Shown piece after piece: positions 9,359 to 49,311 of a DNA stretch of 49,311 nt. Made by a program: the position numbers and the translations under genes. This DNA comes from a virus. Lineage: Duplodnaviria; Heunggongvirae; Uroviricota; Caudoviricetes. The DNA is taken from the IMG/VR virus record IMGVR_UViG_3300010942_000265. One strand, 5' to 3'. The notes below the pieces were generated by a model that saw only the letters and a program-made list of their open reading frames with translations, was not told where the DNA came from and made no database searches. The first letter of the stretch is position 1. Each line of letters begins with the position of its first letter.

Positions 9359-9940
9359 ATGAAGGAATTCAAGATGCCTGACGTAAAAGCACCTAGGTTT
9401 AGACCAGATGTTTATAATGTAATGAATAAAAAGTTCTTTGAGAGTTTTAGACAGAAGTATCCAAAGTATAAAGACTTGGATGATAGAGAGTTAAAGAGAA
9501 TAGGAAAGACCTTTAATCAAACTATGTATCAAGCTGTTATAGATACAAGAGATGGAATTCAACTTCCTGAACAAATTGGATGGCTTTTTATTGGTTCATG
9601 TCAGCAAAGTAAGAAACAGAATATTGACTTTGCTAAGTCAAAGCAATATGGTGTTAAAGTTAGTAATAACAATTGGGCCACAGATGGAAAACTAGCAAAG
9701 ATATTTTTTTCAAATTTTGCGCCAAAGCATAGAATAAGGAACAGAGAGTATTGGACATTTGTTGCTTGCCGAGAATTTAAAAGAAGTGTTGCTAAAGCAT
9801 ATCCTGAAAACTGGAATATGTACCTTGCAGTTGATTCTGCAAAACAAGCTAAAGTAGCTTATGCTAAACACTTATACAAAGACATGAAGAATAAAGAAAC
9901 CGCTAAGGCTTTAGAGACATATAATGAATTTGACTTATGA
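9359..9940 (+). CDS. IHF/HU-like DNA-binding protein of the crAss-like family
   Basis: 193 aa, basic. DGIQLPEQIGWLFIG...NIDFAKSKQYG...TDGKLAKIFFS...YWTFVACREFKR follows the pattern of the IHF-like gene next to the ring and muzzle genes in crAss-like phages. The start may be Met6 (9374). Confidence 0.65.
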   Translation: MKEFKMPDVKAPRFRPDVYNVMNKKFFESFRQKYPKYKDLDDRELKRIGKTFNQTMYQAVIDTRDGIQLPEQIGWLFIGSCQQSKKQNIDFAKSKQYGVKVSNNNWATDGKLAKIFFSNFAPKHRIRNREYWTFVACREFKRSVAKAYPENWNMYLAVDSAKQAKVAYAKHLYKDMKNKETAKALETYNEFDL

Positions 9941-32000: not shown

Positions 32001-34856
32001 CTGTATAATAACAGACAAGATCACTATGATGAAGTAATCAATAATTCAATAACAGCTATTCAAAGAAATACACTTCTTGAAGAATTAGCTGATAAAGGTA
32101 TTTATGTTGACTTAGAAGAGTTTGCTAATTGGTGTGAAGATAAATCACAATTACCAACGTACTTTATTGATCAAGCAAATAAAAGAATTATTAATCAAGA
32201 TAGTTACTTGTATGATCAGTATATTGAATTGTTTAAGTTAGCTGAAAATGCTGAAACAACAAATCCACCAAAACCAAAAAGTACAAAAGAACAAAAGCTT
32301 GAACAAACAATTGACAATTATAACAATCAAAGAGATGGTGAATTAGAAGTTGTTAAAAACGTATATGATAACTCATTAAAACAAGAGATAGGTTATACTC
32401 AAGATGAGATTGAAGAGATGCGTAATAAAGCATTAGGTGATTCAGACATGAATGCTGAAGAAGCTGCTGAAGAAATTACTCTTGCAGAAAAAGCTCTTAA
32501 GCAATTAGAATCAGATAATCATCTTGAGGTTCAAGCTGTATTTGATTTAGCTGTTGAAAAAGAAATGTTTACTCCTCAAGAGTATAACATGGCTAAAGAA
32601 GACTTATTCAGTAATGATGCAGCTCTTGAAGAAATGGCAACATTATCTCAAATGTATGTAGATGCTGAAGAGGAAGATGCAATGGATGCAGCTTCTAATG
32701 TATTCATTCTTAAACCTTTAATTGAAAAAAGAATAACTGTTCTTCAAGCATTTGTTGATGGTAGTGGTATGGATGGTATTCCTTCTTATGAAGAAACTAA
32801 ACCGTATGAAGATTACAATAAAGCTGTAGATGAAATTAATGACAAATATGATGGTCTTATAGCTGATGCTAGAAAAGAATTTGAAGATTCTACTAAGGCA
32901 GACATTGAATCTCAGAGACCTGAAGTAATGAAAGAATCTATCAAGGAAGTACAAGAGTTATTTTCCGGGAAAGATGATATTGTTCAGACTAAAAGAAACT
33001 ACATTGTTGATGGTGAACTTCATGAGAGAATGTCAAACAGAATCAAAACTGGTTATGACACTTATGGTTATTCAGGTGAAAAGGATCTTATAGATCTTTA
33101 TGATAAAACAATTGGTGCAGCTTTAGAAGATTCAAAAGAACTTGATCAAGATATGATTAATGATTTCATTGATGCATTGATTGCTGCAGATCTACCTGGT
33201 GTAAATACAAATAAATACACAGTAGATATAGTAAGAGATGAGCTTGAAACATTGATCAAAACAGATGGTACTAAGTCTAAAAAGATTCAGCGTTATATTT
33301 CTAAACTTAAATCACAGCTTAGTGATGTTGAGAATAAGTTAGCATCTGTAAAAGACAAGAGCCGTCTTGAAAGTTTGAACAGACAAAAAGCTTCCCTAGA
33401 AGAAGCAATCAAAGATGAAGAAAATGGTAAGTATGATGAACCATTTGAAATGACATCTGATAATATTAAGTCTTTCATTCTTAATACAGTAAAAGAAAAT
33501 GCATATGAAGAGTCTAGAGATGCAGGGAATATTATTGACCCTATGTTAAAAGACTATCTTGATACAGCAACTTCTGTAAAACCTAAGTGGGATAAATCTA
33601 AGATGAGCAAAGAAGCATATGATGCTTTGTTTGATGATGAGACAGGTTACCTTACTAAGTTTAAAAACATGGCAGACAATGGTGAGATTTATATTTTTAC
33701 AAAAGATCTTATTGTGCATGCTAATGATTTAGTAGATGCTGAAGGTAACAAGCTTCCTAGTGTAGCGGGTGAGATTGATATGATCATTGTTGACCGTCAA
33801 GGAAGAAAGTTCATTGTAGATTTGAAAACTGGTAAACTTCAAAAATGGTTTAACTACAAAACTATTGGTACAGATTCATTCAAGAAACAATTAGAAAATA
33901 CTTTACAGCAAACTGGTTATGCTAACCTTGCTGAAAACATGTCTGGTGATAAATTTGGAATTAAAATATTCCCTATTGAAATTGGATTTGATAAAGAAGG
34001 ATACATTGTTTCTGCCGGTGCTCCTACTAATCCATCTATTTTTGCTGGAGAAGAAGTTATTGGAGATGAGGGTACTACTCCTTATACAATATCTTTAGAT
34101 AAAGGTAACATCATTCAATACAAGAATGAAGAAACAGGGGCATATCAAACTCAGTCAATTGATGAGTTTATGCAGAATTTAATACCTGTTAAGGGAAGAA
34201 AGGCTACTCAGGTTAAGACTTCACCAACTCCGCAAAATAACATTCCTGAAAATGAAAGAGCTCTTGTAGATGATTTCATGAGTAAGATGGCTGAAATTGG
34301 GAATACTCAAAAAGGAAATACTGCTTTGGATAGTTACACAGACTTAGCTTTAGAGTTAGATGAGATGAAACCTACATTAAGTAAAGAAGCATACAACAAT
34401 ATGAAATCTCAACTTGATGCAAGAATGTCATTAACTTTTGATGAGACTGGAGATGTAGTACTTAAAATCGGAGAAATTTATATCTTTACACAACCAGTAA
34501 AAGATAAAAATATACCTGATGGCTATAGAGTTAAAGTGGATACTTTTGATGCTGAAGACCAGACAGTTACAATATCTAGAGTTGGGCCAGGTAGAAAAAG
34601 TCAACCAATAACAATGTCTATTGAAGAGTTTAATACATACGCAATGAGTGAAGAAGTAATAAACAATATGCCGGAAGAGCAAGAAGAATATATTCCTAGT
34701 GAAGAAGAAATTGAACATATTACAAATAGTATGTCAGTTACAGACGAGCAGTTATCTGATTTTGAACAACTTGCTAAATGGGAAGAAGAAGCATCTGCAG
34801 ATAATGTAGATCTTGATACTTTAAAAAATGATTTCTTTAATAATTTTAAATGCTAA
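29076..34856 (+). CDS. Giant ejected protein with N-terminal membrane-like helices and a PD-(D/E)xK nuclease domain
   Basis: 1926 aa. Gly-rich hydrophobic tract at about aa 214-278; GEIDMIIVD...IVDLKTG plus QQTGY nuclease motifs; ends FKC. Confidence 0.7.
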   Translation: MAQETNRPDIQSDGINDLSQNSEFIAPAGVGVNLYKPLVQPELDINRFNYGDKASVSNPALKIKDTTTGSAPYHPKQVTTAGSKEYGGLKGVMDGLRAELSQNVDKNAYSKIYAYDSSPKGAHKARYKAYGQSTYDKIGFSPEIDNETWFNANTTMYDDWKRMATHAAWPMMKLGFMSPIKSYGKLFGQADIGQDLAEARDYEEYNAIGYSTKGGIGGFAINLQNSAAYSVGILAESVVEGVLIGAAVGAVGGEGVGAVPGAVIGGVTEGFGALLKLPTTLLNMSKNLGKMTMNLKKLENISHVRSMFGNAGRAMGDFINPISNTTEAVMKYAFKNPDDLTNLARTARTVGAMWHDVKNMNAALSEGRLEGGFTEQKVYDDLYNKYYDKYGEAPNDALQKSMRQQAKVAGFQNTWKNTLLVHYSNNLAFPSITKAGFMKGLPTYSKTLGKIGPFQVVYDPAKKVASELAYSAEKVSLRNAAKALTKPATYGKTALNYFKANLVEGFQETAQDVLSEATENYYINSFQNKDRQNFEYSMATLNAAMKKQISAQGLETFASGFAMGSILGIPGGVKNFMSVGYNKYFKHRNNYDEYIKERQAEVDSVVDSLNTMDQSAKHFFDPRLTNYTTQMLAGKVADDPDNATTKEARDTSFAAFQSAVRTSLRTGTFDMFIKNFEGYKQATPEELEQAWRLEPGQGQKALASIDKSIASAKTMAARWQYAKNKMKHVVNPDNFKENTPEREMAEIYNEAYLTGLDNLVFMGGAFDNNAERLEKIYSKLSSIPTIQGSRFSDIATITDPARLSKEIAMLRTDVQLSKDSTTPEGKEQYQKQKDLLEKLETYQKEQVGVAVDFIQKIKNAQKDIMQSEGISAREAQQKAVDQVVASYEAEGVNPFVSYKDSFRNLLDTIAGSEENKVNLGRQLDDAGGFDDLFEMLMDTHVLRNENMNLNKYINLLNSPNDFYEHVQRNFEWMKKLYNNRQDHYDEVINNSITAIQRNTLLEELADKGIYVDLEEFANWCEDKSQLPTYFIDQANKRIINQDSYLYDQYIELFKLAENAETTNPPKPKSTKEQKLEQTIDNYNNQRDGELEVVKNVYDNSLKQEIGYTQDEIEEMRNKALGDSDMNAEEAAEEITLAEKALKQLESDNHLEVQAVFDLAVEKEMFTPQEYNMAKEDLFSNDAALEEMATLSQMYVDAEEEDAMDAASNVFILKPLIEKRITVLQAFVDGSGMDGIPSYEETKPYEDYNKAVDEINDKYDGLIADARKEFEDSTKADIESQRPEVMKESIKEVQELFSGKDDIVQTKRNYIVDGELHERMSNRIKTGYDTYGYSGEKDLIDLYDKTIGAALEDSKELDQDMINDFIDALIAADLPGVNTNKYTVDIVRDELETLIKTDGTKSKKIQRYISKLKSQLSDVENKLASVKDKSRLESLNRQKASLEEAIKDEENGKYDEPFEMTSDNIKSFILNTVKENAYEESRDAGNIIDPMLKDYLDTATSVKPKWDKSKMSKEAYDALFDDETGYLTKFKNMADNGEIYIFTKDLIVHANDLVDAEGNKLPSVAGEIDMIIVDRQGRKFIVDLKTGKLQKWFNYKTIGTDSFKKQLENTLQQTGYANLAENMSGDKFGIKIFPIEIGFDKEGYIVSAGAPTNPSIFAGEEVIGDEGTTPYTISLDKGNIIQYKNEETGAYQTQSIDEFMQNLIPVKGRKATQVKTSPTPQNNIPENERALVDDFMSKMAEIGNTQKGNTALDSYTDLALELDEMKPTLSKEAYNNMKSQLDARMSLTFDETGDVVLKIGEIYIFTQPVKDKNIPDGYRVKVDTFDAEDQTVTISRVGPGRKSQPITMSIEEFNTYAMSEEVINNMPEEQEEYIPSEEEIEHITNSMSVTDEQLSDFEQLAKWEEEASADNVDLDTLKNDFFNNFKC
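32991..33990 (+). other. PD-(D/E)xK (RecB/Cas4-like) nuclease domain within the 1926-aa protein
   Basis: GEID at 33768-33779, DLK at 33819-33827, QxxxY (QQTGY) ending at 33920. The probable N-terminal strand YIVDG..ERMS at about 33000 is separated by a helical insert. Confidence 0.7.
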
Positions 34857-34860
34857 TTAG

Positions 34861-37800
34861 ATGATCAGCTGTCCAATTACTCAGTTACCTCTTGAAAATT
34901 TTTACAAGTATGTATTCCGCGCTATTAAAGATAGACTAGGGAATGATAAATCTTTTGATGTCAATGATTTCATGGAGAAATTATTTGAAGAGTCAGTTAA
35001 AAAAGGTGATCCTGAAACTGCAGCTAAATGGTTGCAAAGTACTCCGCGCGTAATTAATTTAATTATCACAAAATCATTTAGTGATAAGATTCCTTTAGTT
35101 AAAGGGTTGGATAGCATATATGGATTAATGGCTGATTTTTCTAAACCAAACGGTGAAGGATTTCAAAATGTTCTTAAGAAATATACAAAACCTGTTGATC
35201 TGTCAAATGTAAAAGATTCAGCAGTACAACAGTTAACTCTTGAGTTTAGTACCGAAGAAGAAGAGGATGAAGAAGATCAACCAAAAAAAGAAACTAGTTC
35301 AAGAAAAGAAGCTAGACTAAAAACTCCTGTAGTTATGTCTGGTACTCTTCAATCTTTTATACCGGTTGCTCCAGATAAAAAGTCTGATACTTATGTTGAA
35401 AGACTTGATAAACCAAGAGCTCAGATTCTTACTAATCTAGGTCTTTTAGGTGATGCATTAAGCTTAGCTGATCCGTTTGCTGGAGAGTTTACTTATCAAG
35501 GAAAACAAGTAAAAGTAAAAGCTACTAACTTGTATGCTTTTTCTCAACAAAATTTTAATGACCTTGATCCCACAACTCAAAAGGAAATTAAAGATTCAAA
35601 TGCTTTAGTTGTAAAAGGAAGAAACATAGAAGGGGTGACTCAAACAGAAGGTAGAGTTATTCTTGTTGTCACAGATCAATTTGGTGAGAATTTATATTTT
35701 GATCAAGAAGGTAACCTTACAACTAAAGGTAATGGATCTCTGGTATATCAATTTATGAGAGATGTCAGAGAAACTTCAACCGGATATACAGTAAGAGATA
35801 TCTATGGTAAAGAAGAACAGTTGATGTCTGCAGAGACATATGCAGAAATGACATATGATAAAGAAATTGATGGGGACTATAAAACATATGTTGAGGAAGT
35901 AAAAGATGCTAGAGAAAAAGAACTTAAGAGATTGTTTGAAATTAGAGAGCAAGCTTTAGGTGATGATGTGATGTTAGAATTCTCCGGGATTAGTACAGGG
36001 ATTACATCTGATCTCACAGCAACAAAACTTCCCCTATCAGATTTCCTAAAGATACCTGGTTCATCAAAGAAAAGTCTTAAAACTATCCGTACTCTTAAAA
36101 AAGCAGAAGGTAGTTTTAATAAGGGTAGAGCAGTAATTAATTTGAATGGAACAGACTTCCAAGTCAATAGATCTTCTATGCCTGATAGTGTAGCTGATCA
36201 GATTGCTGCAGTTATGTTTGATCCTAATATTCCATTTGAGACTAAGAAAGATTTCTATTCTCAGTTCATTCCTGAAGACAGTGATACAATGTTAGCATAT
36301 ACTATGCGTAAACATGAGATCATTCCTGATATGATGAAACAATCTTTTAGAATTAAGCTGTATGACACAGTAGGAAGTAAAGAGGGTTTTGTTACTCAAC
36401 CTGTTTATGACTTTGTTATTTCTAAAAATGTATTAGATAAAGCTACTAAAGAACAATTAGAGTCTGGTATAAAAGCATTTAGTGATACTTTGAAACAAGG
36501 TAGAGCAAATGGTAAAGCTACTTACATGTCTTATAAATCTGACTTGTTAAACAATGAAGAGTATTTGACATTTAATCTTGGTACCAAACAAATTGAGATT
36601 GGTAACTATATTGATTTCTTAAGTACTCTTGATGGATATGTAGATTTGTTTGATGGAGACCCTGGTTTCTATAATAAACATCTATTATTTAATGAGCCAA
36701 CTGATTTAGACAAACAAGTTAAAAAAGCAACTCAAACTGAAGTATCTTCATTTGATGCAGCACTTGATGAAGCAATTAAATTTGCACTAGAAAAAAAGGC
36801 ATTGGAGAATGCTAACAAAACAGCAAATGAAATTGAAGCTGAAGTTATTGCTGCGCGTGCAATGAGCCCTGAGTTTAAAGAGCAGTTATCATTACAAGGT
36901 ACAACTGGTAAGTATGATAGTTTTTATTATACAGCTAGTCTTATCCAAGCAATTAATAGTAACCGTGACCAAAGATATACTAGAGAAACAGCTGAAGAGT
37001 TGCGCGATATTTTTAGCGGTGCTAAGTACATAAGTGGTAAACAAATTGATACTATCAATGATACTATCAATAGAGCTTTTCCTAAACCAATGCAAGAGTT
37101 GCAGAATGATATTTCAATCATTCAAGGAACTATTGAACCTGAGATGCCGGATCCAACTACAGTTAATCCATCAACTAAAAAAGGAAGCTTACGCTCAAGA
37201 GCACCAAAGAATGACAGTCTTAACCGCGCGGGTTATATTGCTGATGAGATTGGTGAAAAAGATACAGCTAAAGTACTTGACTGGTGGGATAATACTAAGC
37301 TTGGTAAAGAATTACAAAAACATATTACATTAGAACATGCATACAATCTTGTTAACTCAGATGTATTTGCGCGCTTTATAATTAGTGGTGCTACATTATC
37401 TAACCCGGATATCATGGGTAGCATTCAGATTAATAAAGCTAAAGGTTCTTTAGTAGATATTTATCATGAGGCATGGCATGCATTTTCTCAATTGTATTTA
37501 ACGCGCCAAGAAAAGTATGGACTTTATGATGAAGTAGCTAATTACAAAGATGCTGATGGTAAGCAACCCTATAAGAACATGTCTTATAAAGATATTGATG
37601 AGTTGATTGCTGAAGACTTCAGAACTTACATGAAGAAAAGCTATGTCAAAAAAGGGTCTCCTTTAAGAAACAAGTTATTTAGAAAGATCTGGAATTTTAT
37701 TAAAGCATTATTTGGACGTAAGTCAAGCAACAATACTGAAGTTGTAACAGATATAATGAATGTTCCTGCAGTAAGAGAAATGTTTGAAAAGCTTAATTAC

Positions 37801-40800
37801 TCTTCAAACAAAAAATCTTTTGTAAGATCTTATAAGGCTAATATTGATAATGCTGATTTCTTTGAATTAAATAGAGGTATCAGTAAGTTAAATAGACCTG
37901 GTGATAGTGCACTAAGTGATCAAGACTCTAGATTAATTTCTGATACTATTGATATGATTATCTCTGATATCATTGATGATTACTACAGAGAGCGCTTAGA
38001 AGAAGCAGAAGAAACAGGTAACTATAACAGCTTAAAGTCAGGAACAATTGGTTTACTATTGGATCCTGAGCACCGCGCATTTACATATGAAATTGTTAAA
38101 GAAAGATTAGTAGAAAAACTAAACTACTTTAAAGAACAATTACATTCTCAACCAGGTATTGCACCATTTAGTGAAATCAAAACATTAGAGGATCTACAAG
38201 AGAATTCTGTAGCTGTATTGAAGTCTGCTAAAGGAGAAGACAAATATGTATTCTTACAGTCTCAGATAGATGGATTTGATAATTTAAATCCTGAAATGAA
38301 GAAAGGTACTAGAGTTAGAGGTGAGTCTTGGCATGGTATTAAAATAGTTGGTGATTTCTATTCACATAAAAGTGTAAAGAAAGATAAAAGACCGGTAGGG
38401 ATAATTGTAGTTTCTAGTCTTGAGGATATTGAAGTACAATATAATAACTATGTTGCCGGTGGAGCTAAAGATTACATAGGAGTTGAGATCAAAGATATTC
38501 CTGATTATGTATTGTCGGCAGAACAAGAATTTATATTAGATAATGTTAGAATTCTTCAGGCTGCTGTAGACAACTTTGGTAATACTCAATGGGAACTTGA
38601 AGGTGTTGATCCTACAGGAACAATTGCTTATCACTTAGAAAATTCTGACTTTGACATCTCTAAGAAAAGCTATGATCTTGATGCTAGTGAGCTTGATGAA
38701 AATGGTGATGAGATTGATGAAGATGAACAAAATGAAACACATGACTCTGAAACAAGTTATGGTAGTCAAGCAGGTAGTAAAAAGTCATTGTTGCAATTAG
38801 CTTCTAAAGAAGTTGTGTATATCCTTAAAAGTTTACATAAAGTAAACCGTGAAGGAGAAGTTGCTTATAACAGATTAGGTTTTAAAGAACGCGCGGATTT
38901 CAAAAAAGTATGGAACATTGTTACTAAAACAATTGGTGGTGTAAGAAACAGAGTAGAAGCTTATGAGCTTTTAAAACAAGAAGCTAAAAACTTCCCTGAG
39001 ATTGCACAGTTAATTGAAACTAAGTTTCCGGATCCAAAGTTAATTACCAACACATTTGAACAAGATGTAAGTACTTCATTCTGGCAAACATTTGCAAAAC
39101 CAGCTGTTAAGTATTGGCAGTTTACTGTATTCCCACAATATGAAAATGTGGTTAATGCATCAACAGGAGATGTTGAACTTAGCTTAACTGGATTTGAAGC
39201 TGATGTAACACAATCATCAATTGAAGTTGACAGCACAATTAGAAAGTTTGAATCATTATTTAAAGGTAGTGTTGCAAATGATTTTATTGATAAGAATTCT
39301 GATAACCAATCAGTACTTAAATTAAATGAAGTTGTTGAAGCATTCAAGAATCCTAAACACGCGGGTCAATTAAATACTGATAAAGCTTATGAATTTGCTG
39401 CAGCATTAGGAATGAAGCTTGATGATCTTCCGGTGATTAGAAAAAGCCTTAGAGAAAAAGCTGAGTATTATGGTCTTCCATACATCTATGATGTCATCAA
39501 AGACTTCAATGATATTCAAAAATCTACTACAGCAACTACAGAACAAATTGACTTCTTAAATCAATTCATTAGTAACCCTGTTGGATTATTAAGAACTGAG
39601 ATACCAAAAGGAGTACTAAAAAGCTTCAAAAAAGAAGTTGCAGAAAAGAACATCCTTAAAAGAATTGCAGAATTACAATCTCAATATGGATATGATTCTG
39701 CTAATCCTGGTATTTTATTACCTGACGGTAACAGAGTATTTGAAAATGTAAACCATAGTCAAGTTACAGTTACTGTAGATGCAATAAACAATGTAGACAA
39801 CTTAAGTGATTTCTGGACTAGACCTGAATTCCAATTCATGTCACATTTAAAACCAGGTAAATCCTTCTTTACAATGAGATCAAAAGTTTTAGGAGCAATG
39901 TTTGACACAGCTCAGGGAACATTTGAAAGTAAAGGGAATAGATCATTAGAGCTTTTACAAACTGCAGGTACTCAGATAGCAGAAGTTGAGGGTGTTAATA
40001 CATCTGACTTAGATAAGTTAGGTAAATTCTTCCAAGAGTTACATACATTTAGCTTAGGTGGTATTGCTGAATTCATCCGTCATGCTGAGAAAAAATCAGC
40101 ATTTGGTATCAAACAACTTGGTGGTAAAATGAAAGTTATTGCCAACGGTATTACTAATGGAGTAGATCAAAACTTATACATTGATCTAAACAAGTTTACA
40201 GCGCGTCCAGGACAAGAAATAAGTGATGGAGAAATTGTTGCTGTAGGTGGATACTTCCTTGATTATATTGCTGCAGAGTTTGATAGAATCAGATATTTCA
40301 AACAAAATCCTAAAGAACTTGAAACCATCAAAGGTTACAATAGAGAAATCAAAGATGAAAACGGAAAACTTTTAGGAAGAGCTGGAGAATTTTTCAGCGC
40401 GTTTGATAATGTTCTTACTAAAGATACTAAAAAAGAACTATATGCATTAGCATCAGATCCATTAGTTGATTTACCTACTCATATCAGAAACAATCAAGGT
40501 TTGTATCTTAATATACAGAATGACATTGTTCAGTACTTTAGAGAAAAAGCTGAATCAATTAAGTCTGATTACATGAGTCAAATGCCTTATATTGATCCTA
40601 AGCTTTATGAAAAAGCTGGAGTGGAAAAAGTAAAAGGTAAATATGTTGATTCTCAAAATGCTTTGATCAAAGGTTATTTATACAATGACTGGATGCATAA
40701 GTTTGAGATGTTCAATTTATTTAATGGTGATCTTGGACAGTTTAATCATGACAAACAAGAAGCAAGTAAACGTGCTCCTGGTTCTACATCAGATGGTGAA

Positions 40801-43800
40801 GGGTTTGTTAATGATAAGTACATGCATAACTTCATCAATAATGTATTTAACAAAAACACATATGCTAAAAAATTAGCTAAAGAAACAGGATTAGACGTTG
40901 ACAAATTTGTAATGGATGGTACATTAAATACTGGAGTCATTGCAGATGCTGAAAGAAAGTCTGTTTACTTAGATGAAATGTTAGAAGCATGGGAAGAAAA
41001 ATACCGTAATGATCTTGCACCTTTATATTCTAATAAAGCTGAATTAGAAAAAGAAATAAGCAGAAGACTTGCTAAAGATGCTAAGGCTTATAAGGAAATG
41101 AAGGAATCTGATGGTGCAGCATTTATGACATTTGATGCATATAGAAGTATCAGAAAAATGGGTAATAGTTGGGGCACTGCTCAAGAAGCTTTGTATCAAC
41201 AAATTGTTAGAGGTGAAGCTGTTGATCCATTAAAAGTAAGTGAGTTCTTCCCAATCTATAAATTACATTACTATGGAGCTATTGCTAATGCTCCTATAGC
41301 TGTAACAGCAATGCACAAGTTTGCGGTTACTCCTATTATTCCAACTATTGCTGTTGAGGGTACTGAGATTTATAATCTACATGTAAAGATGATGAAAGAG
41401 AATCGTCAGTATGTAACATTTGGATCTGGTTCTAAAGTTTCCAGTCTTACAACTGATGGTAATTTTGATAACATCTTTGGTGATGACACACAAAAGTCTG
41501 TATCTATGGATGCACCAATTAGAAATAATCAAATCTATTTGGAGTATTTGAAAGATGTAACTAAAGTAGCCACTAAGCTTAAGAAAGAAATCAGCTATCC
41601 TACTCAAAAACGTGTATTATTATTGGATGGTCTATTCAATGTTGGAGAAATCATACATAAAGTACATGAAGATGTAGCAAATGAGTATAAAGATTCTGTT
41701 GAAGATTACACAGAAACATTAGCTCTTGAGTTATTAAACAAGATTGGTTATGAGTATGATCCGGCTACTGGTAAGTATACAGGTAAGTTAGATAAGTTTA
41801 TTGAACTTATCAGAACTGAATTAGGAGCTAAGGAAGTTCCTGAGCATTTGATTAAGTTATTAGATGTAACACTTGCTGAGCACTTATCAATGGACTTCTC
41901 TGTTCATCCTGAAGCTGATACACTTGAAAAAATTATTGTAAACAGAATTCAGAAAAGTGTAATCAAGCAAAAGACAAAAGGTGAGTCTATGGTTCAGGCC
42001 CCATCTACATTCTATAATGGTGTGTGGAGTAGTCCTTTTGAAAGAGATCAGGCAATTAAAAAGAATGATGCTCTTATTAAAAAATGGTTAGGAAGTAATA
42101 TCTTACCATTCTATAGAAGAGGTGACTTAAAACCTGATGGAACAAGAGAAGCAACACATGCAATGAAAGTTGCTGTACCATTAAATGGTGACTTCTTGAA
42201 CTTGCTTAAATTAAAACATCCTGATGGTAATCCTATAGGGACAGCTGAGCGCCTAAATGATCTTATCAAAACAGATTCATGGTTAGAAGAGAATAGAGAG
42301 CTTATCACTATTACAGGGCCAAGGATTCCAACTGATGCTGCTAACTCTATGGAGTTTGCTGAGATCTGGCACTTCATTGATGCTGCTGCAGGTAATACTG
42401 TAATTGTACCAACTGAGATTGTTGCTAAAGCAGGATCTGACTTTGACGTTGATAAAATCTTCTTCATGTTACCTAACATAAATTCTGATGGTACTTTAGT
42501 TAAGGCACCGGCAGAAAGTTTGGATGAGTTGACAAAGATGGTTAAGGAAAGTAATACGCTTAGTAAAAAGGAAAGAAAAGAGAAAGGATTAAAAAATCCT
42601 CAAGCTCTTATTGATCAGTATAAAAAAGCAGCACAAAACCGCTTGATTAAAAACACCAGAAACATCCTCTCCTTACCAGAAAACTATGCAAGTTTAACAA
42701 AACCTAATAACACTTACTTAGTTGAAGATGAGGTAGACTTCTATGATAAAAATTCAGCGGGTTATAACAATAAAAAGAACGCGCATGGTGAACCAGTAAG
42801 AATGAATGGTAAGACTGAAGTAATGAGTCCATCAAGAGTATTTGATATTGACTATAACTTAAGTCAACATGAATCTAACTTGTCTGGTAACTTACCGTTA
42901 GGTATTATGGCTAAGAAAAATAAAGTACATGCTTTATTCAAAAGTGTTGGTGCCATTATGCCAAAATCATACAATGCAACTGTATGGAATGATGAGACTA
43001 AAAAGTATGATGAAATTCCTGCTAAGTATAATGTAGTGCTACACATGAAGCACAATAAAACTAGAAACAGTGCAGGAGAAGAAGTTGTATCATTATCAAA
43101 TGAGAACAATGTAAATGGTGAAAAGATTGGAGATATCTTCTCTCACGGACTTCAAGGATTACTTGACCGTGCTAAGAACCCATTCCCATTCAAACTTCAG
43201 ATTGTAAAAGAAGCATTGAGTACAATCAACCACCTTATTGAATCTGGTGTAAGTGTACCAGAAACATTTGCTTTCATTAATAACCCATGGATTGTTAGAT
43301 ACATTCAAAAACAAATGTATTATGGTGGTTCTATGGCTAAGCTTCAAGCAGAACCGGTATTAAGTCATCAAGTAAAATCTAAAGCCTTAAGAGAAACTGT
43401 TAATCAGTTAGCAGAATTTGGTGGTGAGGACATGAAGAAAACTGTATTTGAACTAGCTAATTACGCTAATGACCGCAGATTAGCAGATGTTCTTGATATG
43501 CTTAAAACAAAGAACTTAGATACTAAATATCTGGTTACTTTATTTGATGCTGATAGCAAACAACTAGTACAAAGACTTGTTACAGGAAAAAGAATGTTTG
43601 ATAATAAAGGTTTTCCATTTGATACTATCATGGAAATAAAAGAATTTGAATCAGACAAAATGGAGTATGAGTTAAAAACATACTACGCTAAATCTTCCGG
43701 TATTGCAAATAATGATAACTTCTATTATGCTGCAGAGGCTGCTTGGAGAAGAGCTTTTGGTGATAAAGAATACTTATCAGAAGAAGAATTAAAAGATCTT

Positions 43801-46800
43801 GTAGTTGGTGGTCTTAAACCAAGTATCCAAAATCTAGCTATCTTAATGCACATGATGCAGTTGGAGAAACAATTCAATGGAATGGATCAGCTAGAAATGG
43901 CCTTTAGTCCAGATACTGGTTTAATGGATACTACACTTCAGATCAAGAAGAGAGACAATGCCTTTAAAATGTTTGAGAGTGAGCAATCTAAAATTGATAA
44001 TGATTTCTTAAATAGATTGAGACATAATTCAATTTTGTCTTCATTCTACAAGAGTGATATGATCTTAGATCTTGTTGTTCCGTTGTTTTCTTTAAGGTTA
44101 AATGATTCTATCTCAGGATTTATTGAAAGAAAAATAGATCAAAATAGAGATATGATCAGTCAAAAGTTTGGGCCAGGTGTTAAAGGACAAGAAAGATTTA
44201 TCAACATGTATAACAATGCTGTTGTAAACTACATCTTCCAAAATACAATGTCTAACTATACTGATGAGAACGGGCAACCAGTTGTCCTACCAGAAGTAGT
44301 ACATAAGATGCCAGTTATTCAAGTCAAAAAAGGCCCAGCTGTATCAATTGTTAATGATGAAGTAAAAGTAAATCTAGAACAAATTACAAATGATTATGAC
44401 ACTAGAATTTTCTTAAGTTCTAATAATACAACTGAAGGTAATGCAGCTAATAATCTGGATACGTTTAACCCTGATCAGAATCCTTTCCCAACATTTGCTA
44501 GTTATTTAAAATTTGTTGTAGAGAAAGAGTACTTGAAAACAGGATACACTAAAGAATCTTTGGCAACAAACAAAGAGTTTATTAAGTTATCTAATCAAGC
44601 AGGTTCTCAAGATCTAGGTTATGATAAATACATTACTCAAAGAGCTTTGATGAATAGCTTTAACCGTGCTTTCATTATGGGTACTACTAAATACTCATAT
44701 ACAACTATGGTTATGGATATCATCAATGAGTTTGAGGAAAGTAATATCAAAGAAAACTTCCCTGTGTTAGCTCAATTAGCTCCAGCTAAATTTGTTAAAG
44801 AAGTAAATGTATTAGAACTTAATGATAAGGCAACGGCTAAAGGTGCTGTAGCTGATGATTACTATAAAAACTTAAAACAGTTAGGTGACATCACAGTAAG
44901 AAAAGTACAAAACAAAGAAGACAACAAAAGAATTAGTGAAGTATTTAAAAACTTCTCTATGCTTATGTTCTATCAGCATGGTATGGGTTATTCTAAATTA
45001 GGATTTGTAAAAGTTCTAGATCCGGAAGCCTTTACTGAGATCATGCAAAATGCATCAAACGCTTTCTTAAACAATGACTTGTCAGAACAAACATTTGAGA
45101 GAATTTATACTAGACTAAATACTAAGAGTCCATTTAAAAACTACACAGTTGATCCAAATAACATGGATGATATTGAGTCAGTTGAAGCATTTATCTCAAC
45201 GTTTTCTGAAGATGACTTTGCAGGTATGGAAGATTTCTTAGGTACACCAGCAGTTAATCAACCAGAAAATCAACCTACAGATTTATCAACTTATACAAAC
45301 CATTCAGGTGGTGCTTATGGTGGTGATACTTTTTGGGATATAATTGGTAGAGAGTTTGGTGTAACTAATCATAAGCATTATAGAGATGCTGGTAATACAT
45401 CTTTATCTGCTCAGTTAAGGAGGGCTGGTGTTGAAGCTGAAGTTCTTACTAAAGATCAAATGGATAAAGCTAGGACTGAAGTAGAAACATTACTTGGAGA
45501 AAAATATCCTGATACATTGCAAGGAAACTTACAAGTCAGAAACTATTATCAAGTAGCTAATGCAGATGCTGTATATGCTGTTGCTGAAATTGTGCCGTCT
45601 ACAAAACCTGAAGTTTTTGGTGGAACCAATACTGCTATTCAATTAGGAATAAAATTGGGTAAACCAGTCTATGTATTTGATTTAGATACAAAAAAATGGT
45701 ATACACAAGATAAATCATTTCTTGAAACAGGTTATGATGAAACTAAACATGAGTGGAATTATAATGGTTGGATGGAAACAAGTACACCTACTCTTACTAA
45801 AAACTTTGCTGGTGTAGGATCAAGAGATATTGAATCTTATAATGTAAAAAATGCAGAAGGTAAATGGGTACCAAGACCAAAATATAAAGGTATAGAAGTT
45901 GAAGAAGCTGCTAAACAAGCTATCAGAGAGGTATATGAGAATACTTTAAGTCAATCTGCAGAGATTACTCAACCTGCAAATATGGTTAAAGAAGGAGTAC
46001 AAGAACTATTTGATACTAATCCAGAATTAGCCTCTGTAGGAACACCTCAGCAATACTCTCAATACTTAGATACAGTGTTTCCTAATAGTAAAGTAAAAGA
46101 TATTCTTTATCATGGTGGAGATTTATCAAATATTGTTTCTCGTGAGCTACCGACTTTTTTCACTAAGGATATAAACTATGCAAATCTTTTTACAGGAGTA
46201 TCTGCAACGTCTGATGAAAAAAGAATACGTATTAAAGGTGCAACATATACAATTGATTCTATTGAAGAATTAGGAGATGAAAAATATGAAGTAACTACAA
46301 AAAATAATAAAAAGTTTATAGTAGGAAAGTTTGCAGAGTATTATACTGTTGATCCTATTCACGGATTTGAATCATCTAAAAAACCAATTACTGAATATAA
46401 CAAGCAAAGAAAAACAACATCTTCTGTATTTAAAGCTATTGTTAATGTTATCAATCCAGCTTATGTAAATGAAAATTCTTTTGAGAATTTTAAAAGCATA
46501 AAAGAAAAACTTACTGAAAATGATTCTATTATAGGTGAAGAAACAATTGACACTGTAAAAAGAGGAGCTAATAAATTTACAGCTGAAGGAGAAAGTATAG
46601 GAGTGTTTTCACCAGAACAGATTCATATACTAGGAAATAATGAAGATATAGAAGGATTTAAACAATTTGTACAAAGTGGAAATACCGTTCAAACTGTGGA
46701 TTCTTCACCAACAGCTATGATATCTGAATTTTATAATAGCTTAACTGAAGATCAGAAACAGATATTAGGTAACTTAGATGAGTTAATTGCTACATATGAA

Positions 46801-46860
46801 GATGTACCATTTACTTATTCACAGGAAGAATATATTGAAAGTTTAAAATGTAAGTTGTAA
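34861..46860 (+). CDS. Giant virion-packaged single-chain two-barrel RNA polymerase, multidomain (zincin + RNAP + SLOG + ART-like)
   Basis: 3999 aa. RIPT...GNTVIVPTEIVAKAGSDFDVDK matches the crAss-like vRNAP catalytic region (DFDID in phi14:2 gp66); also HEAWH, HSGGAYGGD and YHG...FF...VFSPEQI motifs. Confidence 0.9.
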   Translation: MISCPITQLPLENFYKYVFRAIKDRLGNDKSFDVNDFMEKLFEESVKKGDPETAAKWLQSTPRVINLIITKSFSDKIPLVKGLDSIYGLMADFSKPNGEGFQNVLKKYTKPVDLSNVKDSAVQQLTLEFSTEEEEDEEDQPKKETSSRKEARLKTPVVMSGTLQSFIPVAPDKKSDTYVERLDKPRAQILTNLGLLGDALSLADPFAGEFTYQGKQVKVKATNLYAFSQQNFNDLDPTTQKEIKDSNALVVKGRNIEGVTQTEGRVILVVTDQFGENLYFDQEGNLTTKGNGSLVYQFMRDVRETSTGYTVRDIYGKEEQLMSAETYAEMTYDKEIDGDYKTYVEEVKDAREKELKRLFEIREQALGDDVMLEFSGISTGITSDLTATKLPLSDFLKIPGSSKKSLKTIRTLKKAEGSFNKGRAVINLNGTDFQVNRSSMPDSVADQIAAVMFDPNIPFETKKDFYSQFIPEDSDTMLAYTMRKHEIIPDMMKQSFRIKLYDTVGSKEGFVTQPVYDFVISKNVLDKATKEQLESGIKAFSDTLKQGRANGKATYMSYKSDLLNNEEYLTFNLGTKQIEIGNYIDFLSTLDGYVDLFDGDPGFYNKHLLFNEPTDLDKQVKKATQTEVSSFDAALDEAIKFALEKKALENANKTANEIEAEVIAARAMSPEFKEQLSLQGTTGKYDSFYYTASLIQAINSNRDQRYTRETAEELRDIFSGAKYISGKQIDTINDTINRAFPKPMQELQNDISIIQGTIEPEMPDPTTVNPSTKKGSLRSRAPKNDSLNRAGYIADEIGEKDTAKVLDWWDNTKLGKELQKHITLEHAYNLVNSDVFARFIISGATLSNPDIMGSIQINKAKGSLVDIYHEAWHAFSQLYLTRQEKYGLYDEVANYKDADGKQPYKNMSYKDIDELIAEDFRTYMKKSYVKKGSPLRNKLFRKIWNFIKALFGRKSSNNTEVVTDIMNVPAVREMFEKLNYSSNKKSFVRSYKANIDNADFFELNRGISKLNRPGDSALSDQDSRLISDTIDMIISDIIDDYYRERLEEAEETGNYNSLKSGTIGLLLDPEHRAFTYEIVKERLVEKLNYFKEQLHSQPGIAPFSEIKTLEDLQENSVAVLKSAKGEDKYVFLQSQIDGFDNLNPEMKKGTRVRGESWHGIKIVGDFYSHKSVKKDKRPVGIIVVSSLEDIEVQYNNYVAGGAKDYIGVEIKDIPDYVLSAEQEFILDNVRILQAAVDNFGNTQWELEGVDPTGTIAYHLENSDFDISKKSYDLDASELDENGDEIDEDEQNETHDSETSYGSQAGSKKSLLQLASKEVVYILKSLHKVNREGEVAYNRLGFKERADFKKVWNIVTKTIGGVRNRVEAYELLKQEAKNFPEIAQLIETKFPDPKLITNTFEQDVSTSFWQTFAKPAVKYWQFTVFPQYENVVNASTGDVELSLTGFEADVTQSSIEVDSTIRKFESLFKGSVANDFIDKNSDNQSVLKLNEVVEAFKNPKHAGQLNTDKAYEFAAALGMKLDDLPVIRKSLREKAEYYGLPYIYDVIKDFNDIQKSTTATTEQIDFLNQFISNPVGLLRTEIPKGVLKSFKKEVAEKNILKRIAELQSQYGYDSANPGILLPDGNRVFENVNHSQVTVTVDAINNVDNLSDFWTRPEFQFMSHLKPGKSFFTMRSKVLGAMFDTAQGTFESKGNRSLELLQTAGTQIAEVEGVNTSDLDKLGKFFQELHTFSLGGIAEFIRHAEKKSAFGIKQLGGKMKVIANGITNGVDQNLYIDLNKFTARPGQEISDGEIVAVGGYFLDYIAAEFDRIRYFKQNPKELETIKGYNREIKDENGKLLGRAGEFFSAFDNVLTKDTKKELYALASDPLVDLPTHIRNNQGLYLNIQNDIVQYFREKAESIKSDYMSQMPYIDPKLYEKAGVEKVKGKYVDSQNALIKGYLYNDWMHKFEMFNLFNGDLGQFNHDKQEASKRAPGSTSDGEGFVNDKYMHNFINNVFNKNTYAKKLAKETGLDVDKFVMDGTLNTGVIADAERKSVYLDEMLEAWEEKYRNDLAPLYSNKAELEKEISRRLAKDAKAYKEMKESDGAAFMTFDAYRSIRKMGNSWGTAQEALYQQIVRGEAVDPLKVSEFFPIYKLHYYGAIANAPIAVTAMHKFAVTPIIPTIAVEGTEIYNLHVKMMKENRQYVTFGSGSKVSSLTTDGNFDNIFGDDTQKSVSMDAPIRNNQIYLEYLKDVTKVATKLKKEISYPTQKRVLLLDGLFNVGEIIHKVHEDVANEYKDSVEDYTETLALELLNKIGYEYDPATGKYTGKLDKFIELIRTELGAKEVPEHLIKLLDVTLAEHLSMDFSVHPEADTLEKIIVNRIQKSVIKQKTKGESMVQAPSTFYNGVWSSPFERDQAIKKNDALIKKWLGSNILPFYRRGDLKPDGTREATHAMKVAVPLNGDFLNLLKLKHPDGNPIGTAERLNDLIKTDSWLEENRELITITGPRIPTDAANSMEFAEIWHFIDAAAGNTVIVPTEIVAKAGSDFDVDKIFFMLPNINSDGTLVKAPAESLDELTKMVKESNTLSKKERKEKGLKNPQALIDQYKKAAQNRLIKNTRNILSLPENYASLTKPNNTYLVEDEVDFYDKNSAGYNNKKNAHGEPVRMNGKTEVMSPSRVFDIDYNLSQHESNLSGNLPLGIMAKKNKVHALFKSVGAIMPKSYNATVWNDETKKYDEIPAKYNVVLHMKHNKTRNSAGEEVVSLSNENNVNGEKIGDIFSHGLQGLLDRAKNPFPFKLQIVKEALSTINHLIESGVSVPETFAFINNPWIVRYIQKQMYYGGSMAKLQAEPVLSHQVKSKALRETVNQLAEFGGEDMKKTVFELANYANDRRLADVLDMLKTKNLDTKYLVTLFDADSKQLVQRLVTGKRMFDNKGFPFDTIMEIKEFESDKMEYELKTYYAKSSGIANNDNFYYAAEAAWRRAFGDKEYLSEEELKDLVVGGLKPSIQNLAILMHMMQLEKQFNGMDQLEMAFSPDTGLMDTTLQIKKRDNAFKMFESEQSKIDNDFLNRLRHNSILSSFYKSDMILDLVVPLFSLRLNDSISGFIERKIDQNRDMISQKFGPGVKGQERFINMYNNAVVNYIFQNTMSNYTDENGQPVVLPEVVHKMPVIQVKKGPAVSIVNDEVKVNLEQITNDYDTRIFLSSNNTTEGNAANNLDTFNPDQNPFPTFASYLKFVVEKEYLKTGYTKESLATNKEFIKLSNQAGSQDLGYDKYITQRALMNSFNRAFIMGTTKYSYTTMVMDIINEFEESNIKENFPVLAQLAPAKFVKEVNVLELNDKATAKGAVADDYYKNLKQLGDITVRKVQNKEDNKRISEVFKNFSMLMFYQHGMGYSKLGFVKVLDPEAFTEIMQNASNAFLNNDLSEQTFERIYTRLNTKSPFKNYTVDPNNMDDIESVEAFISTFSEDDFAGMEDFLGTPAVNQPENQPTDLSTYTNHSGGAYGGDTFWDIIGREFGVTNHKHYRDAGNTSLSAQLRRAGVEAEVLTKDQMDKARTEVETLLGEKYPDTLQGNLQVRNYYQVANADAVYAVAEIVPSTKPEVFGGTNTAIQLGIKLGKPVYVFDLDTKKWYTQDKSFLETGYDETKHEWNYNGWMETSTPTLTKNFAGVGSRDIESYNVKNAEGKWVPRPKYKGIEVEEAAKQAIREVYENTLSQSAEITQPANMVKEGVQELFDTNPELASVGTPQQYSQYLDTVFPNSKVKDILYHGGDLSNIVSRELPTFFTKDINYANLFTGVSATSDEKRIRIKGATYTIDSIEELGDEKYEVTTKNNKKFIVGKFAEYYTVDPIHGFESSKKPITEYNKQRKTTSSVFKAIVNVINPAYVNENSFENFKSIKEKLTENDSIIGEETIDTVKRGANKFTAEGESIGVFSPEQIHILGNNEDIEGFKQFVQSGNTVQTVDSSPTAMISEFYNSLTEDQKQILGNLDELIATYEDVPFTYSQEEYIESLKCKL
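37330..37720 (+). other. Zincin-like metallopeptidase domain (HExxH)
   Basis: HEAWH at 37465-37479 with downstream ELIAEDF at 37600-37620 supplying a third-ligand Glu. Boundaries approximate. Confidence 0.75.
40690..43310 (+). other. RNAP catalytic core region
   Basis: LFNGD, KRAPG, ESDGAAFM, RIPT and DFDVD (42439-42453, aa 2527-2531). Boundaries approximate. Confidence 0.8.
45289..45945 (+). other. SLOG-superfamily (Smf/DprA/LOG-like) nucleotide-binding domain
   Basis: HSGGAYGGDTFW...RNYYQVANADAVYAV...GGTNTAIQLGIKLGKPVYVFD...FAGVGSR. Confidence 0.7.
45985..46671 (+). other. ADP-ribosyltransferase-fold (ART-PolyVal-like) domain
   Basis: ELFDTNPEL...ILYHG...TFFTKDINYA...AIVNVINP...DSII...ESIGVFSPEQI, with a ~60-aa insertion. 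Confidence 0.55.
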
Positions 46861-47783
46861 TGAGTTGTATTAACAAAGCAGACAAAGCATATAAAGCCCT
46901 GCAGAGTGTCTATGGTGATACTCTTGCAGAAGCTTTTGTTCGTGGGTATCCTTCAAACAAAGGAAAGACACAGGACATGGAATATGACATTCCTAATAAG
47001 AGACAAGTTAAAGATTGGCTTACTGAAGAAAAAAGAAACATTCCAAGGTATATTAGAAGGGCAATGGAACTCAATCCTTATATGTCAGAAAGTGCTCTTA
47101 AAAGCATGCTTAAAGGAGTTATCAGTAAACGTGATGATGCTTATTTTATTACAACTGGTAATTTGTTTTCAGGATTCATGTCTATGAACCAAGAAATTTT
47201 TGATACAGTTTACACTCCTAATCTGGGTGTAATGCAAAAGTTACAGAAAGAATATCCTGATATCTTTACACTTAAGAGTACAAGAACTGAACATAGAATT
47301 GTAGTTGAGATTAACCCAAGAGTAAAACCTTTGTATGATAATACTGAGGAAGATCTTGAAGAGGTTGATCCTGTTGATACTGCAGATAGTATGCAGGAAA
47401 GCATGCAAGTTTATCAGTCTATTATAGAAAAAAATAATGGACGTAAACCTGTAGAGTTTATGTCTGGTAATTTAAAATGGCAGTTAAACAAAAATGGTTT
47501 ATACAATCTTGTAGATAAGTTTACAAATAGTGTTTACATGAGAAACATAGATTTAGAAACTGGTGAAGTAGTCCCAGAAATAGATCCAGGTACTCCGGTA
47601 AATGAAGCAAAAAGAGATAGAATATTCAGATCTGTAATGCAAATGATCAAGGAGCAAAAATTAGATGAGTATCTTGCTGTAAAAGGTATTGATACTGCAG
47701 ATATTTATGAGTCTTTGAGAGATGCTAAAACTGATAGAGATTTAAATAAAGTCATAGAAACATTATTAAAAGCAATATGTTAA
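46860..47783 (+). CDS. 307-aa protein in the ejected-protein cluster, function unknown
   Basis: TAATG coupling to the RNAP gene. Begins MSCINK and ends LLKAIC; these are its only two Cys. Confidence 0.7.
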   Translation: MSCINKADKAYKALQSVYGDTLAEAFVRGYPSNKGKTQDMEYDIPNKRQVKDWLTEEKRNIPRYIRRAMELNPYMSESALKSMLKGVISKRDDAYFITTGNLFSGFMSMNQEIFDTVYTPNLGVMQKLQKEYPDIFTLKSTRTEHRIVVEINPRVKPLYDNTEEDLEEVDPVDTADSMQESMQVYQSIIEKNNGRKPVEFMSGNLKWQLNKNGLYNLVDKFTNSVYMRNIDLETGEVVPEIDPGTPVNEAKRDRIFRSVMQMIKEQKLDEYLAVKGIDTADIYESLRDAKTDRDLNKVIETLLKAIC

Positions 47784-49311
47784 GTTGTCCAAGAAAAACA
47801 AGTAGAGAGTGGCAAGATGTTCTTGCAAGAGCTCAGGGTAATGAAGATGAAGCAAGAAGAATTTGGATTGAAGAAGAGTTTGAATTCAATCCGGATTTGA
47901 ATGTTAAAGTTACTGATGAGAACTATGAGGATGAGCGTGAAGGAGAGCCTGGTCAAGAAGAACTTGAACCAACGGATGACTTTGCTGGATTACTACAAAG
48001 AATTAAAATCTATGTTAATAGACAGATTGAAATTCTAAACAGTAAGAAGATTGCTAATGTGAAGTACAAACAAAGTCAGTTAAGAGAGTTGTTGAATGCT
48101 ATTGAGACTATGGATGGTGTTGCTTCAATTAATATGTTTGTTAAAGATGCATATGACAAAGCTCAACAAGTAGAAAGAAGATTTGCTAAACTGTTAAGTA
48201 ATAAAAAGAACATGAGTTCTAAGGAAATCATGATTGAATTAACAGGTATTAATGACTTTGCAAATAGTTATTCTATTTTGGATGAGATTGATTCTGCAGA
48301 TATCATGAACTACTTTACAACTAAAGCTGGTGTTGAAGATAGTTTTGGCCCTATGACTCCTCAAAAGATGTTAACGGATGCTATTAAGATCAGAGACAAG
48401 GTTAAGAAAAAAGTAGTAACAGAGGCTATTCCTTTGATGGCTGAGTATTTGGTGGAGTACAAGTCTACCCTACAAGACAAAACCATTCCTGAAGAAGTAG
48501 CTAGAATGGAACAACAAATCCAAGACATTGAAGCTAACACTAGAATGTCTGATAAAAGAAAAGCAAAAGAAATTAAAAAGCTTCAAGATAGACTAAAGCT
48601 TTTTGAAGGATTTGATGTTGATCAAGGATCCATGGAAAAGATTCTAAAGATGGCTAATAGAGATGAAGGAGTCCTTGACTTTTTAGTATCTCCTCTTATT
48701 ACATCTTCAGACAGTGCATTAGCTTTGTTTGCTAAGTCTATTAAATCTCAATTAGAATTTGCTAGACAAAAAGATATCAAAGTTAGAGATCAGTTGATTG
48801 AAGCTTTCCAAAAGTATAAACCTACAGCTCCTGCAGGATCAGATAATACTGCTAAGTTTAATCAAGGTCTTTATGAAGAAATAGAGATTCCTGTATATGA
48901 CAAAGATGGTACTGTTTCTGGAACAAGAAAAGAAGTACAGTTTGTACAAAAGTTTGATATGAATAAATTCAATCAGGCTAAAAAAGCATTCTTTGAAAAA
49001 TTAGGCCCAATGCCACAAAAAGCTGGAGAAAAAGCTACTAAGGAAGAGTCAGCTAAAATTAAGGCTTGGTGGGCAGAGCGCAACAAATGGTTTAAAGAGA
49101 ATACTCAACCAAGACCTAAAGAAGAAAGAGATGCTATCATTTCACAAATGCAGAAAGATAAAGATAACAAACTGATTAGTGAAGATGATTATAATAAATG
49201 GTTAAGAAAGAATGTCAATGAATATCAAGGTGTTGTCACATACTTTGATGACTTGGCTACTCCATCTAATAACTATAAGAGTCAGAAATGGAATGAAATG
49301 TATGACTCAAA
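47777..49311 (+). CDS. Large helical protein, 3'-truncated (probably the next giant ejected protein); absent from the ORF track
   Basis: I translated from ATG 47777 (MLSCPRKTSREWQDVLARAQGNEDEARRIW...) to the window end: 511 codons, no stop. It overlaps the previous stop by 7 nt. Confidence 0.85.
   Translation, partial: MLSCPRKTSREWQDVLARAQGNEDEARRIWIEEEFEFNPDLNVKVTDENYEDEREGEPGQEELEPTDDFAGLLQRIKIYVNRQIEILNSKKIANVKYKQSQLRELLNAIETMDGVASINMFVKDAYDKAQQVERRFAKLLSNKKNMSSKEIMIELTGINDFANSYSILDEIDSADIMNYFTTKAGVEDSFGPMTPQKMLTDAIKIRDKVKKKVVTEAIPLMAEYLVEYKSTLQDKTIPEEVARMEQQIQDIEANTRMSDKRKAKEIKKLQDRLKLFEGFDVDQGSMEKILKMANRDEGVLDFLVSPLITSSDSALALFAKSIKSQLEFARQKDIKVRDQLIEAFQKYKPTAPAGSDNTAKFNQGLYEEIEIPVYDKDGTVSGTRKEVQFVQKFDMNKFNQAKKAFFEKLGPMPQKAGEKATKEESAKIKAWWAERNKWFKENTQPRPKEERDAIISQMQKDKDNKLISEDDYNKWLRKNVNEYQGVVTYFDDLATPSNNYKSQKWNEMYDS

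Follow-up and report, generated by a model that had tools for sequence, protein, structure and literature searches.

The window analysed here is the whole 49,311-nucleotide (nt) stretch of IMG/VR virus record IMGVR_UViG_3300010942_000265 (Caudoviricetes), which ends in four consecutive genes for candidate cargo proteins of a crAss-like phage, i.e., proteins that would be packaged in the virion and ejected into the host. In gene order these are protein A (1926 amino acids, aa), protein B (3999 aa), a 307-aa protein that we call the adaptor and protein C (1144 aa), and our subject is the placement of their cysteines (Cys) at the three junctions where one protein ends and the next begins (Table 1). 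The translated open reading frames (ORFs) of this chain contain 7 Cys in 7,376 residues, six of which lie no more than 4 residues from the six termini that face a junction, while the two outer termini have no Cys; such terminal placement has a binomial chance of 4.7e-14. The counts, residues and coordinates of these Cys given in a first-pass annotation of the window are all as reported there. Protein C, which the window truncates, was completed from contig L094, identical to the window over their shared 2,452 nt; the full 1144-aa protein has Cys4 only, ends in ...SFESSFFK without a C-terminal Cys and is followed directly by a strand switch. At junction 3 the two halves nearly coincide in the DNA, the Cys codon of the adaptor overlapping the ATG of protein C and the Cys codon of protein C lying a few bases past the adaptor stop.

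Protein B is identified by sequence as a crAss-type virion RNA polymerase (RNAP). Its residues 2000-2545 align to the RNAP core of phi14:2 g066 (BLAST E 1e-15; g066 residues 898-1379), the structurally characterised virion RNAP gp66 (Drobysheva et al.), and the GSDFDVD columns are invariant in an alignment of B with phi14:2 g066, crAss001 gp50 and three Suoliviridae; the RNAP call of the first-pass annotation thus holds. The RNAP core is ~24% identical to that of the nearest GenBank phage, a distance which indicates a deep, uncultured crAss-like lineage. Protein C is a homologue of crAss001 gp49 and phi14:2 g065. The query for this comparison was the orthologue in locus L001, also of 1144 aa and with 85% identity to protein C in the first 220 residues, and it matches the two over ~850 residues (E 5e-58 and 7e-50, respectively). 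Protein A has a single weak BLAST match to crAss001 gp47 (E 9e-5), and part of the gp47 C-terminal region matches the N-terminal part of protein B instead (E 2e-4). The block closes the virion structural module: ORFs upstream of it match PHROG virion structural families, and the strand flips past C. The crAss001 and phi14:2 cargo homologues are virion components by mass spectrometry (PMC10172136 for crAss001), and by this homology the chain proteins of the window would be packaged as well. Pfam has no family match for any of the four chain proteins and PHROGs none for A, the adaptor or C, with B matching a DprA-like domain only; the earlier label of “nuclease” for protein A finds no backing in either database. 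A phmmer search of protein B against the PDB sequences also returned no match.

Table 1. Coordinates of the chain proteins and their terminal features in the window.
Feature	Position	Strand	Remarks
Protein A	29076..34856	+	1926 aa, first member of the chain; Cys 1020 and 1926; no N-terminal Cys
Cys1926 codon (protein A)	34851..34853	+	TGC; C-terminal half of junction 1, ...FFNNFKC*
Protein B	34861..46860	+	3999 aa, crAss-type virion RNA polymerase by homology, with extra domains; Cys 4 and 3997 only; MISCP... / ...IESLKCKL*
Cys4 codon (protein B)	34870..34872	+	MISCP...; N-terminal half of junction 1
GSDFDVD (DFDxD) catalytic motif, two-barrel RNA polymerase	42433..42453	+	Protein B residues 2525-2531
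DprA-like domain in protein B	45289..45729	+	Residues 3477-3623; phrog_768, E 1.3e-9
C-terminal tail module of B, ~50 aa	46708..46857	+	FYNSLT.EQ..LGNLD.L...Y.DVPF.Y..EEYIESLKCKL; Cys3997 codon 46849-46851; conserved alignment block
307-aa adaptor ORF	46860-47783	+	Cys 3 and 307; MSCIN... / ...LLKAIC*
Adaptor N-terminal domain (1-158)	46860..47333	+	MSCINK, Cys3 codon 46866-46868; junction 2 partner of the B tail
Adaptor C-terminal domain (177-307)	47388..47780	+	...LLKAIC, Cys307 codon 47778-47780; junction 3 donor
Protein C	47777..49311	+	First 511 of 1144 aa; single Cys4 (codon 47786-47788), MLSCP; last member of the chain
“CPN” N-terminal head module, ~45 aa	47777..47911	+	M-x(1-4)-C-P-N-x-x-S-x-E-W-K-x-L-x4-G-E-x2-A...; junction 3 acceptor

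Elsewhere in the window, Cys makes up ~3% of the first fourteen, non-cargo proteins (164 of 5,465 residues) and is missing from two proteins upstream of the chain (933 and 1156 aa). The same structural module also holds Cys-rich proteins at 5136-6920 (49 Cys in 594 aa), 6951-8588 (20 in 545) and 8601-9248 (12 in 215), in sharp contrast to the cargo block; the two of these that were tested have no PHROG match. The single internal Cys of the chain, Cys1020 of protein A (codon 32133-32135), has a counterpart in number in the A protein of the close relative L012, which also has one internal Cys, and remoter relatives have none. The DprA-like domain near the C-terminal end of B occurs likewise, by tblastn, in N4-like virion RNAPs (Klebsiella phage Pylas, Alteromonas phage PT15-A5) and in jumbo phages, which suggests that it is an accessory module common to ejected polymerases.

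Conservation of the terminal cysteines

The Cys placement seen in the window recurs in its relatives. The adaptor has 45 database matches, 5 of them partial or differently bounded, and each of the 40 full-length homologues (45-100% identity) has exactly two Cys, one at residue 3 and one at the last or next-to-last residue. The named genomes covered were phi14:2, crAss001 and three Suoliviridae, with the Intestiviridae not covered by name. In phi14:2 the only Cys of g067 (1797 aa) is its last residue, those of g066 stand at residues 3 and 2179 of 2180, and the only one of g065 is at residue 3. In crAss001, gp47 has only C2339 of 2341 residues, gp50 has C5, C1334 and C2404 of 2412, and gp49 has only C5. 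The Suoliviridae cr113_1, cr130_1 and cr272_1, in which TAG is read as Gln, encode A and B as one fused giant of 4328-6386 aa that has a C-terminal Cys and no N-terminal Cys, and the next protein begins M..CPN. Nearer to the window, the A protein of L012 ends in the same tail as protein A, and L014-L018 keep the C-terminal Cys of junction 1. Terminal Cys are thus conserved in orthologues, as the first-pass annotation had expected, and the alignments indicate that the pattern is under purifying selection.

To these we added a survey of 80 IMG/VR loci found by alignment to the RNAP core (22-82% identity), 78 of which were usable, all in genetic code 11. Junctions were scored within the Cys-poor block, counting Cys in the last 10 residues of the upstream protein and the first 8 of the downstream one. 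Both sides had Cys at 110 junctions, neither side at 37 and only one side at a single junction, where the upstream Cys lies 19 residues before the end; the co-occurrence of junction Cys that had been predicted is therefore borne out. The “neither” class is made up of two pseudo-splits and of the small proteins without Cys that precede A. The table gives a Fisher probability of 4e-34, a value which overstates independence since the loci are related. The 443,196 residues of the block contain 36 internal Cys, compared with 227 Cys-bearing termini. Over the 113 both-Cys junctions of survey loci L012-L091 the N-terminal Cys stands at residue 3, 4, 5 or 6 and never at residue 2, and 0-8 residues follow the C-terminal Cys. 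Outer chain ends never carry a terminal Cys, be it in the survey loci, in the matches of the CPN family or in the chain of the window.

The residues next to the Cys are less constant than the Cys themselves. The first-pass annotation had noted that the window N-termini share Ser-Cys and that each C-terminal Cys follows Lys at the end of an amphipathic helix. Ser-Cys is present at all three N-termini of the window but among relatives at only 16 of 99 distinct junctions, and Lys just before the C-terminal Cys is found in relatives at only 25 of 99 distinct junctions. Placement on or next to a terminal helix is predicted by AlphaFold2 (AF2) for two of the three C-terminal Cys: helix 292-306 of the adaptor abuts Cys307, and the last 50 residues of protein B (predicted local distance difference score, pLDDT, 85-94, against less than 50 upstream) form a small helical bundle, the final helix of which contains Cys3997.

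Candidate docking modules, fusions and interrupted genes

In the AF2 model the adaptor has one domain at residues 1-158 and a second at 177-307, with a disordered linker between them (the predicted template modelling score, pTM, is low at 0.44), and each of the two domains is found elsewhere as a part of a neighbouring protein. In L016 and L081 the adaptor N-terminal domain opens the long last protein (hmmsearch E 3e-44 and 1e-42; BLAST), which in both loci also contains a C-like region and has no internal Cys. In L018 the adaptor C-terminal domain closes the polymerase protein (hmmsearch E 2e-24; BLAST E 5e-20), and the next protein there is a full homologue of C. A single clade therefore has three arrangements—a tail fused to B and followed by C, B followed by a head fused to C, and B, a free head-tail protein and C—and in all three Cys are found only at real polypeptide ends. 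By these homologies the 307-aa protein consists of one head and one tail module only, as a pure adaptor. Other linkers of ~170, 290-330 and 506-534 aa, each with Cys at both ends, occur in at least 5 other clades. The idea that the adaptor is instead the split-off N-terminal end of crAss001 gp49 or phi14:2 g065 was set aside because hhalign against the N-terminal 400 aa gave no match and the two halves of the adaptor tie to the C proteins of L016 and L081 and to the B protein of L018. Foldseek of the adaptor model against the PDB returned nothing significant. When adaptor residues 177-307 were co-folded with residues 1-60 of protein C, using alignments for both, the score was 0.02, to which, in a run without control pairs, we give no weight in either direction.

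The head of protein C belongs to a far larger set. A profile of the CPN head matches 1,136 clusters (50% identity) at E<=1e-3 in a library of 1.84 billion proteins; of the top 150 matches, 146 have C-P among their first 8 residues, and the 54 long matches have 15 internal Cys in 96,524 residues. A 328-aa linker in the distant relative L060 (14797-15780) resembles the part of the window before the B tail (~45988-46707), at 77% identity over 43 aa and 42% over 113 aa, far above the ~26% identity of their RNAP cores, a likeness that suggests recent exchange of a module.

Where neighbouring genes are fused the Cys disappear, as the first-pass annotation had anticipated. The fused A+B proteins have an N-terminus of their own without Cys and almost no internal Cys, and within the clade of the window itself L018 and L016, in which halves of the adaptor are fused to B or to C, have no Cys at the fused point and no internal Cys. 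Breaks that do not separate real protein ends also lack Cys. In cr108_1 a group I intron (Rfam RF00028, 80 bits) cuts the RNAP gene within the catalytic motif, between GSD and YDIDK, and there is no Cys at the break; nor is there one in L080, a frameshifted near-copy of the fused L078. The cr108_1 intron lies at 15559-15877 of L093 (NC_055878.1), where the two RNAP halves are annotated as separate hypothetical proteins. In L080 the fused A+B gene is split at 9545-9585 into two overlapping frames, probably by a sequencing or assembly frameshift, and L086 has, at a place similar to the L080 break, a 243-nt gap that may hold an intron.

Insertions, by comparison, leave the pairs in place. Terminal Cys pairs are kept across inserted genes in L053 (10024-10641), L062 (1675-2460) and L039 (11711-13050); the inserted genes are small, contain Cys and are possibly homing endonucleases. 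Likewise, crAss001 gp47 lies on the strand opposite to gp50 and keeps its terminal Cys. The genes at the junctions lie between -4 and +68 nt apart, and their Cys are encoded by TGT as well as by TGC.

A putative disulfide chain and its alternatives

We consider it probable, by analogy with cyanopodophage A4 for the disulfide chemistry, that this conserved rule marks a chain of intermolecular disulfides, i.e., a reversible polyprotein, that is reduced after entry. Each junction would be a two-part docking cassette, composed of a helical tail module at the C-terminal end of the upstream protein and a head module at the N-terminal end of the downstream one, and each half would carry the sole Cys allowed in its region. 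In the virion the C-terminal Cys of one protein would bond to the Cys at residue 3-6 of the next, such that separate polypeptides act as one N-to-C thread packaged 1:1, and other Cys would have been purged to avoid wrong bridges. The thread would exit via the tail one protein after another and come undone in the reducing cytoplasm. In the window the adaptor would serve to turn a “KCKL*/MSCINK” junction into a “KAIC*/M..CPN” junction. The proposal of the first-pass annotation, that these proteins are chained in gene order by matched tags at their termini, agrees with the comparisons of conservation, of co-occurrence and of loss upon fusion set out above, which speak for it at the level of sequence.

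The closest known counterpart is the A4 (A-4L) pre-ejectosome, published in PNAS in 2025, in which cryo-electron microscopy of the virion places the C-terminal helix of gp27 in a cleft of gp26, fixed by a Cys1715-Cys5 disulfide (PMC12002296). In the A4 genome (KF356198) the two genes are consecutive, and Cys 1715 of gp27 (1717 aa) and Cys 5 of gp26 (1114 aa) are the sole Cys of the two proteins. All three window junctions share this signature: consecutive genes for known or candidate ejection proteins, a lone Cys near the upstream C-terminal end and a lone Cys at residue 3-6 downstream. The A4 Cys sits on a long terminal helix, and AF2 predicts helices at the C-terminal ends of the adaptor and of B, with docking putative. 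The two systems differ in that the single link of A4 belongs to a five-fold ring about the portal axis and was presented as a stabilising detail of local scope rather than as a rule, whereas the window has three putative serial links that run through the polymerase and a dedicated adaptor and follow a pattern that is order-wide and is gained or lost with gene splits and fusions. On these comparisons the chain would work like the A4 link without being a member of the A4 protein family.

Other systems share single aspects of the arrangement. The phi14:2 (g067-g066-g065) and crAss001 (gp47-gp50-gp49) blocks resemble that of the window in their DFDxD two-barrel core, their homologues of C and the same topology of terminal Cys, but the window has four proteins and three junctions, a B protein of 3999 aa with a DprA-like domain, and the extra 307-aa adaptor. 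Cys suppression has been described in N4-like ejected proteins (Schitoviridae gp50/gp71, gp51/gp72 and gp52/gp73; PMC11445570); these too are giant proteins, including a virion RNAP, purged of Cys, some of them sharing the DprA-like domain, but they have no Cys at all, whereas here one is kept per facing terminus. Polyketide synthase (PKS) and nonribosomal peptide synthetase (NRPS) docking domains offer an analogy only: short, swappable C- and N-terminal modules on consecutive products set their order, but by contacts which are non-covalent and cytoplasmic, whereas a redox-sensitive covalent latch inside the virion is proposed here. No homology to PKS/NRPS docking domains emerged from Pfam, which has no match on the four chain proteins.

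Several points weigh against the disulfide chain. The survey loci are phylogenetically related, so that the 110:1 table overstates the number of independent events, and on the RNAP tree at least 4 changes between split and fused states are needed, of which well-supported branches force only 1. The positions of the N-terminal Cys depend on start-codon calls (first ATG), and the internal Cys1020 of protein A is an exception to a terminal-only rule. A phmmer search of all cargo proteins against A4 gp26-gp29 found no match at E<=10, and without sequence homology the A4 analogy may reflect convergence. Physical linkage is, in this phage as in every crAss-like phage, putative. The model must also account for when and how oxidation would take place, given that gut crAss-like phages infect strict anaerobes and are assembled in the cytoplasm. 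Finally, the crAss001 atlas leaves the cargo unresolved and reports no cargo disulfide (PMC10172136). The same work documents structural disulfides in crAss001 virions and detects gp47, gp49 and gp50 in them by mass spectrometry.

It is unlikely, in our judgement, that the modules are non-covalent docking cassettes or split domains in which the Cys has some other role, e.g., as a redox or thiol sensor that sets off release, as a modification site or in attachment to something else in the virion, perhaps the portal or the inner capsid. Head and tail modules of ~45-160 aa are indeed far larger than a Cys and are gained or lost as units, and the CPN head alone is a family of 1,136 clusters. The Cys nevertheless match one-to-one across junctions (110 to 1) and are never found at outer ends, a matching that is predicted by bonding between partners and that a third-party target does not require. 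We give still less credence to docking in which the two Cys bind a shared metal (Zn, Fe or Cu), perhaps with other ligands or a second copy of the junction. The pairing, conservation and co-loss of the Cys fit a bridging metal as well as they fit a disulfide, a metal needs no oxidant in an anaerobic host, and some tails have His beside the Cys (cr130_1 ...NHCKGGK, cr272_1 ...KHCKN, P0026 and P0027 ...KALCH). Alignments and residue counts, however, give two Cys per junction only, with no conserved third or fourth ligand, and the one solved example of the signature is a disulfide (PMC12002296).

Ring closure, with B and the adaptor each closed on itself by a bond between its own two terminal Cys and with A and C paired through theirs, is suggested by B and the adaptor holding exactly one Cys per end, but we regard it as very improbable. 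The A+B fusions retain only the C-terminal Cys of B and the N-terminal Cys of C, which are not partners under ring closure; in this one-junction architecture the two Cys that remain are the cognate pair, so that closing one protein on itself fails. The A4 bond is moreover intermolecular, and the AF2 adaptor modules are separate domains on a disordered linker (that model with a low pTM, 0.44). A nucleotide signal (translational coupling, promoter or terminator) of which the Cys codons are a by-product, or plain chance, is a negligible prospect, for although the genes are tightly packed and the Cys codons of junction 3 overlap or adjoin start and stop, the Cys are kept with partners on opposite strands (crAss001) or parted by inserted genes, the spacing is variable, TGT and TGC are both used, conservation is at the protein level over modules of 45-160 aa, and chance stands at ~5e-14.

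Meaning for crAss-like phages

The literature that we searched contains no description of the terminal-Cys rule for crAss-like phages, and that on the crAss001 and phi14:2 cargo block leaves the Cys unmentioned. The first-pass annotation went slightly too far in saying that it knew of no description of such a link, as the A4 gp27-gp26 disulfide had been reported (PMC12002296). What was already known is the Cys depletion of N4-like ejected proteins (PMC11445570) and the single head-to-tail disulfide of A4; what is new here is the putative three-link chain, the pure two-module adaptor and a natural experiment within one clade on the joint gain and loss of cassette and Cys.

The rule is of immediate use in annotation, as it tells true protein ends from intron or frameshift breaks, identifies chain members without other homology and singles out the CPN head as a large, uncharacterised family of N-terminal modules. 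It also bears on the open question of how a podophage packs several huge proteins at fixed ratios and passes them in order through a narrow tail; the 2023 crAss001 atlas (PMC10172136) and a 2026 N4 paper both leave the crassvirus cargo unresolved. With one Cys per facing terminus, a redox switch suggests itself by which the RNA polymerase would be set free in active form in the cell and not before. It is possible, if a little short of probable, that crAss-like phages, perhaps along with A4 and further podophages, join separately encoded ejected proteins into a reversible polyprotein by means of interchangeable, disulfide-latched two-part docking cassettes, with which evolution could freely split, fuse and reshuffle the cargo while stoichiometric packaging and ordered ejection were kept, and that pure adaptors would serve only to join one cassette type to another.

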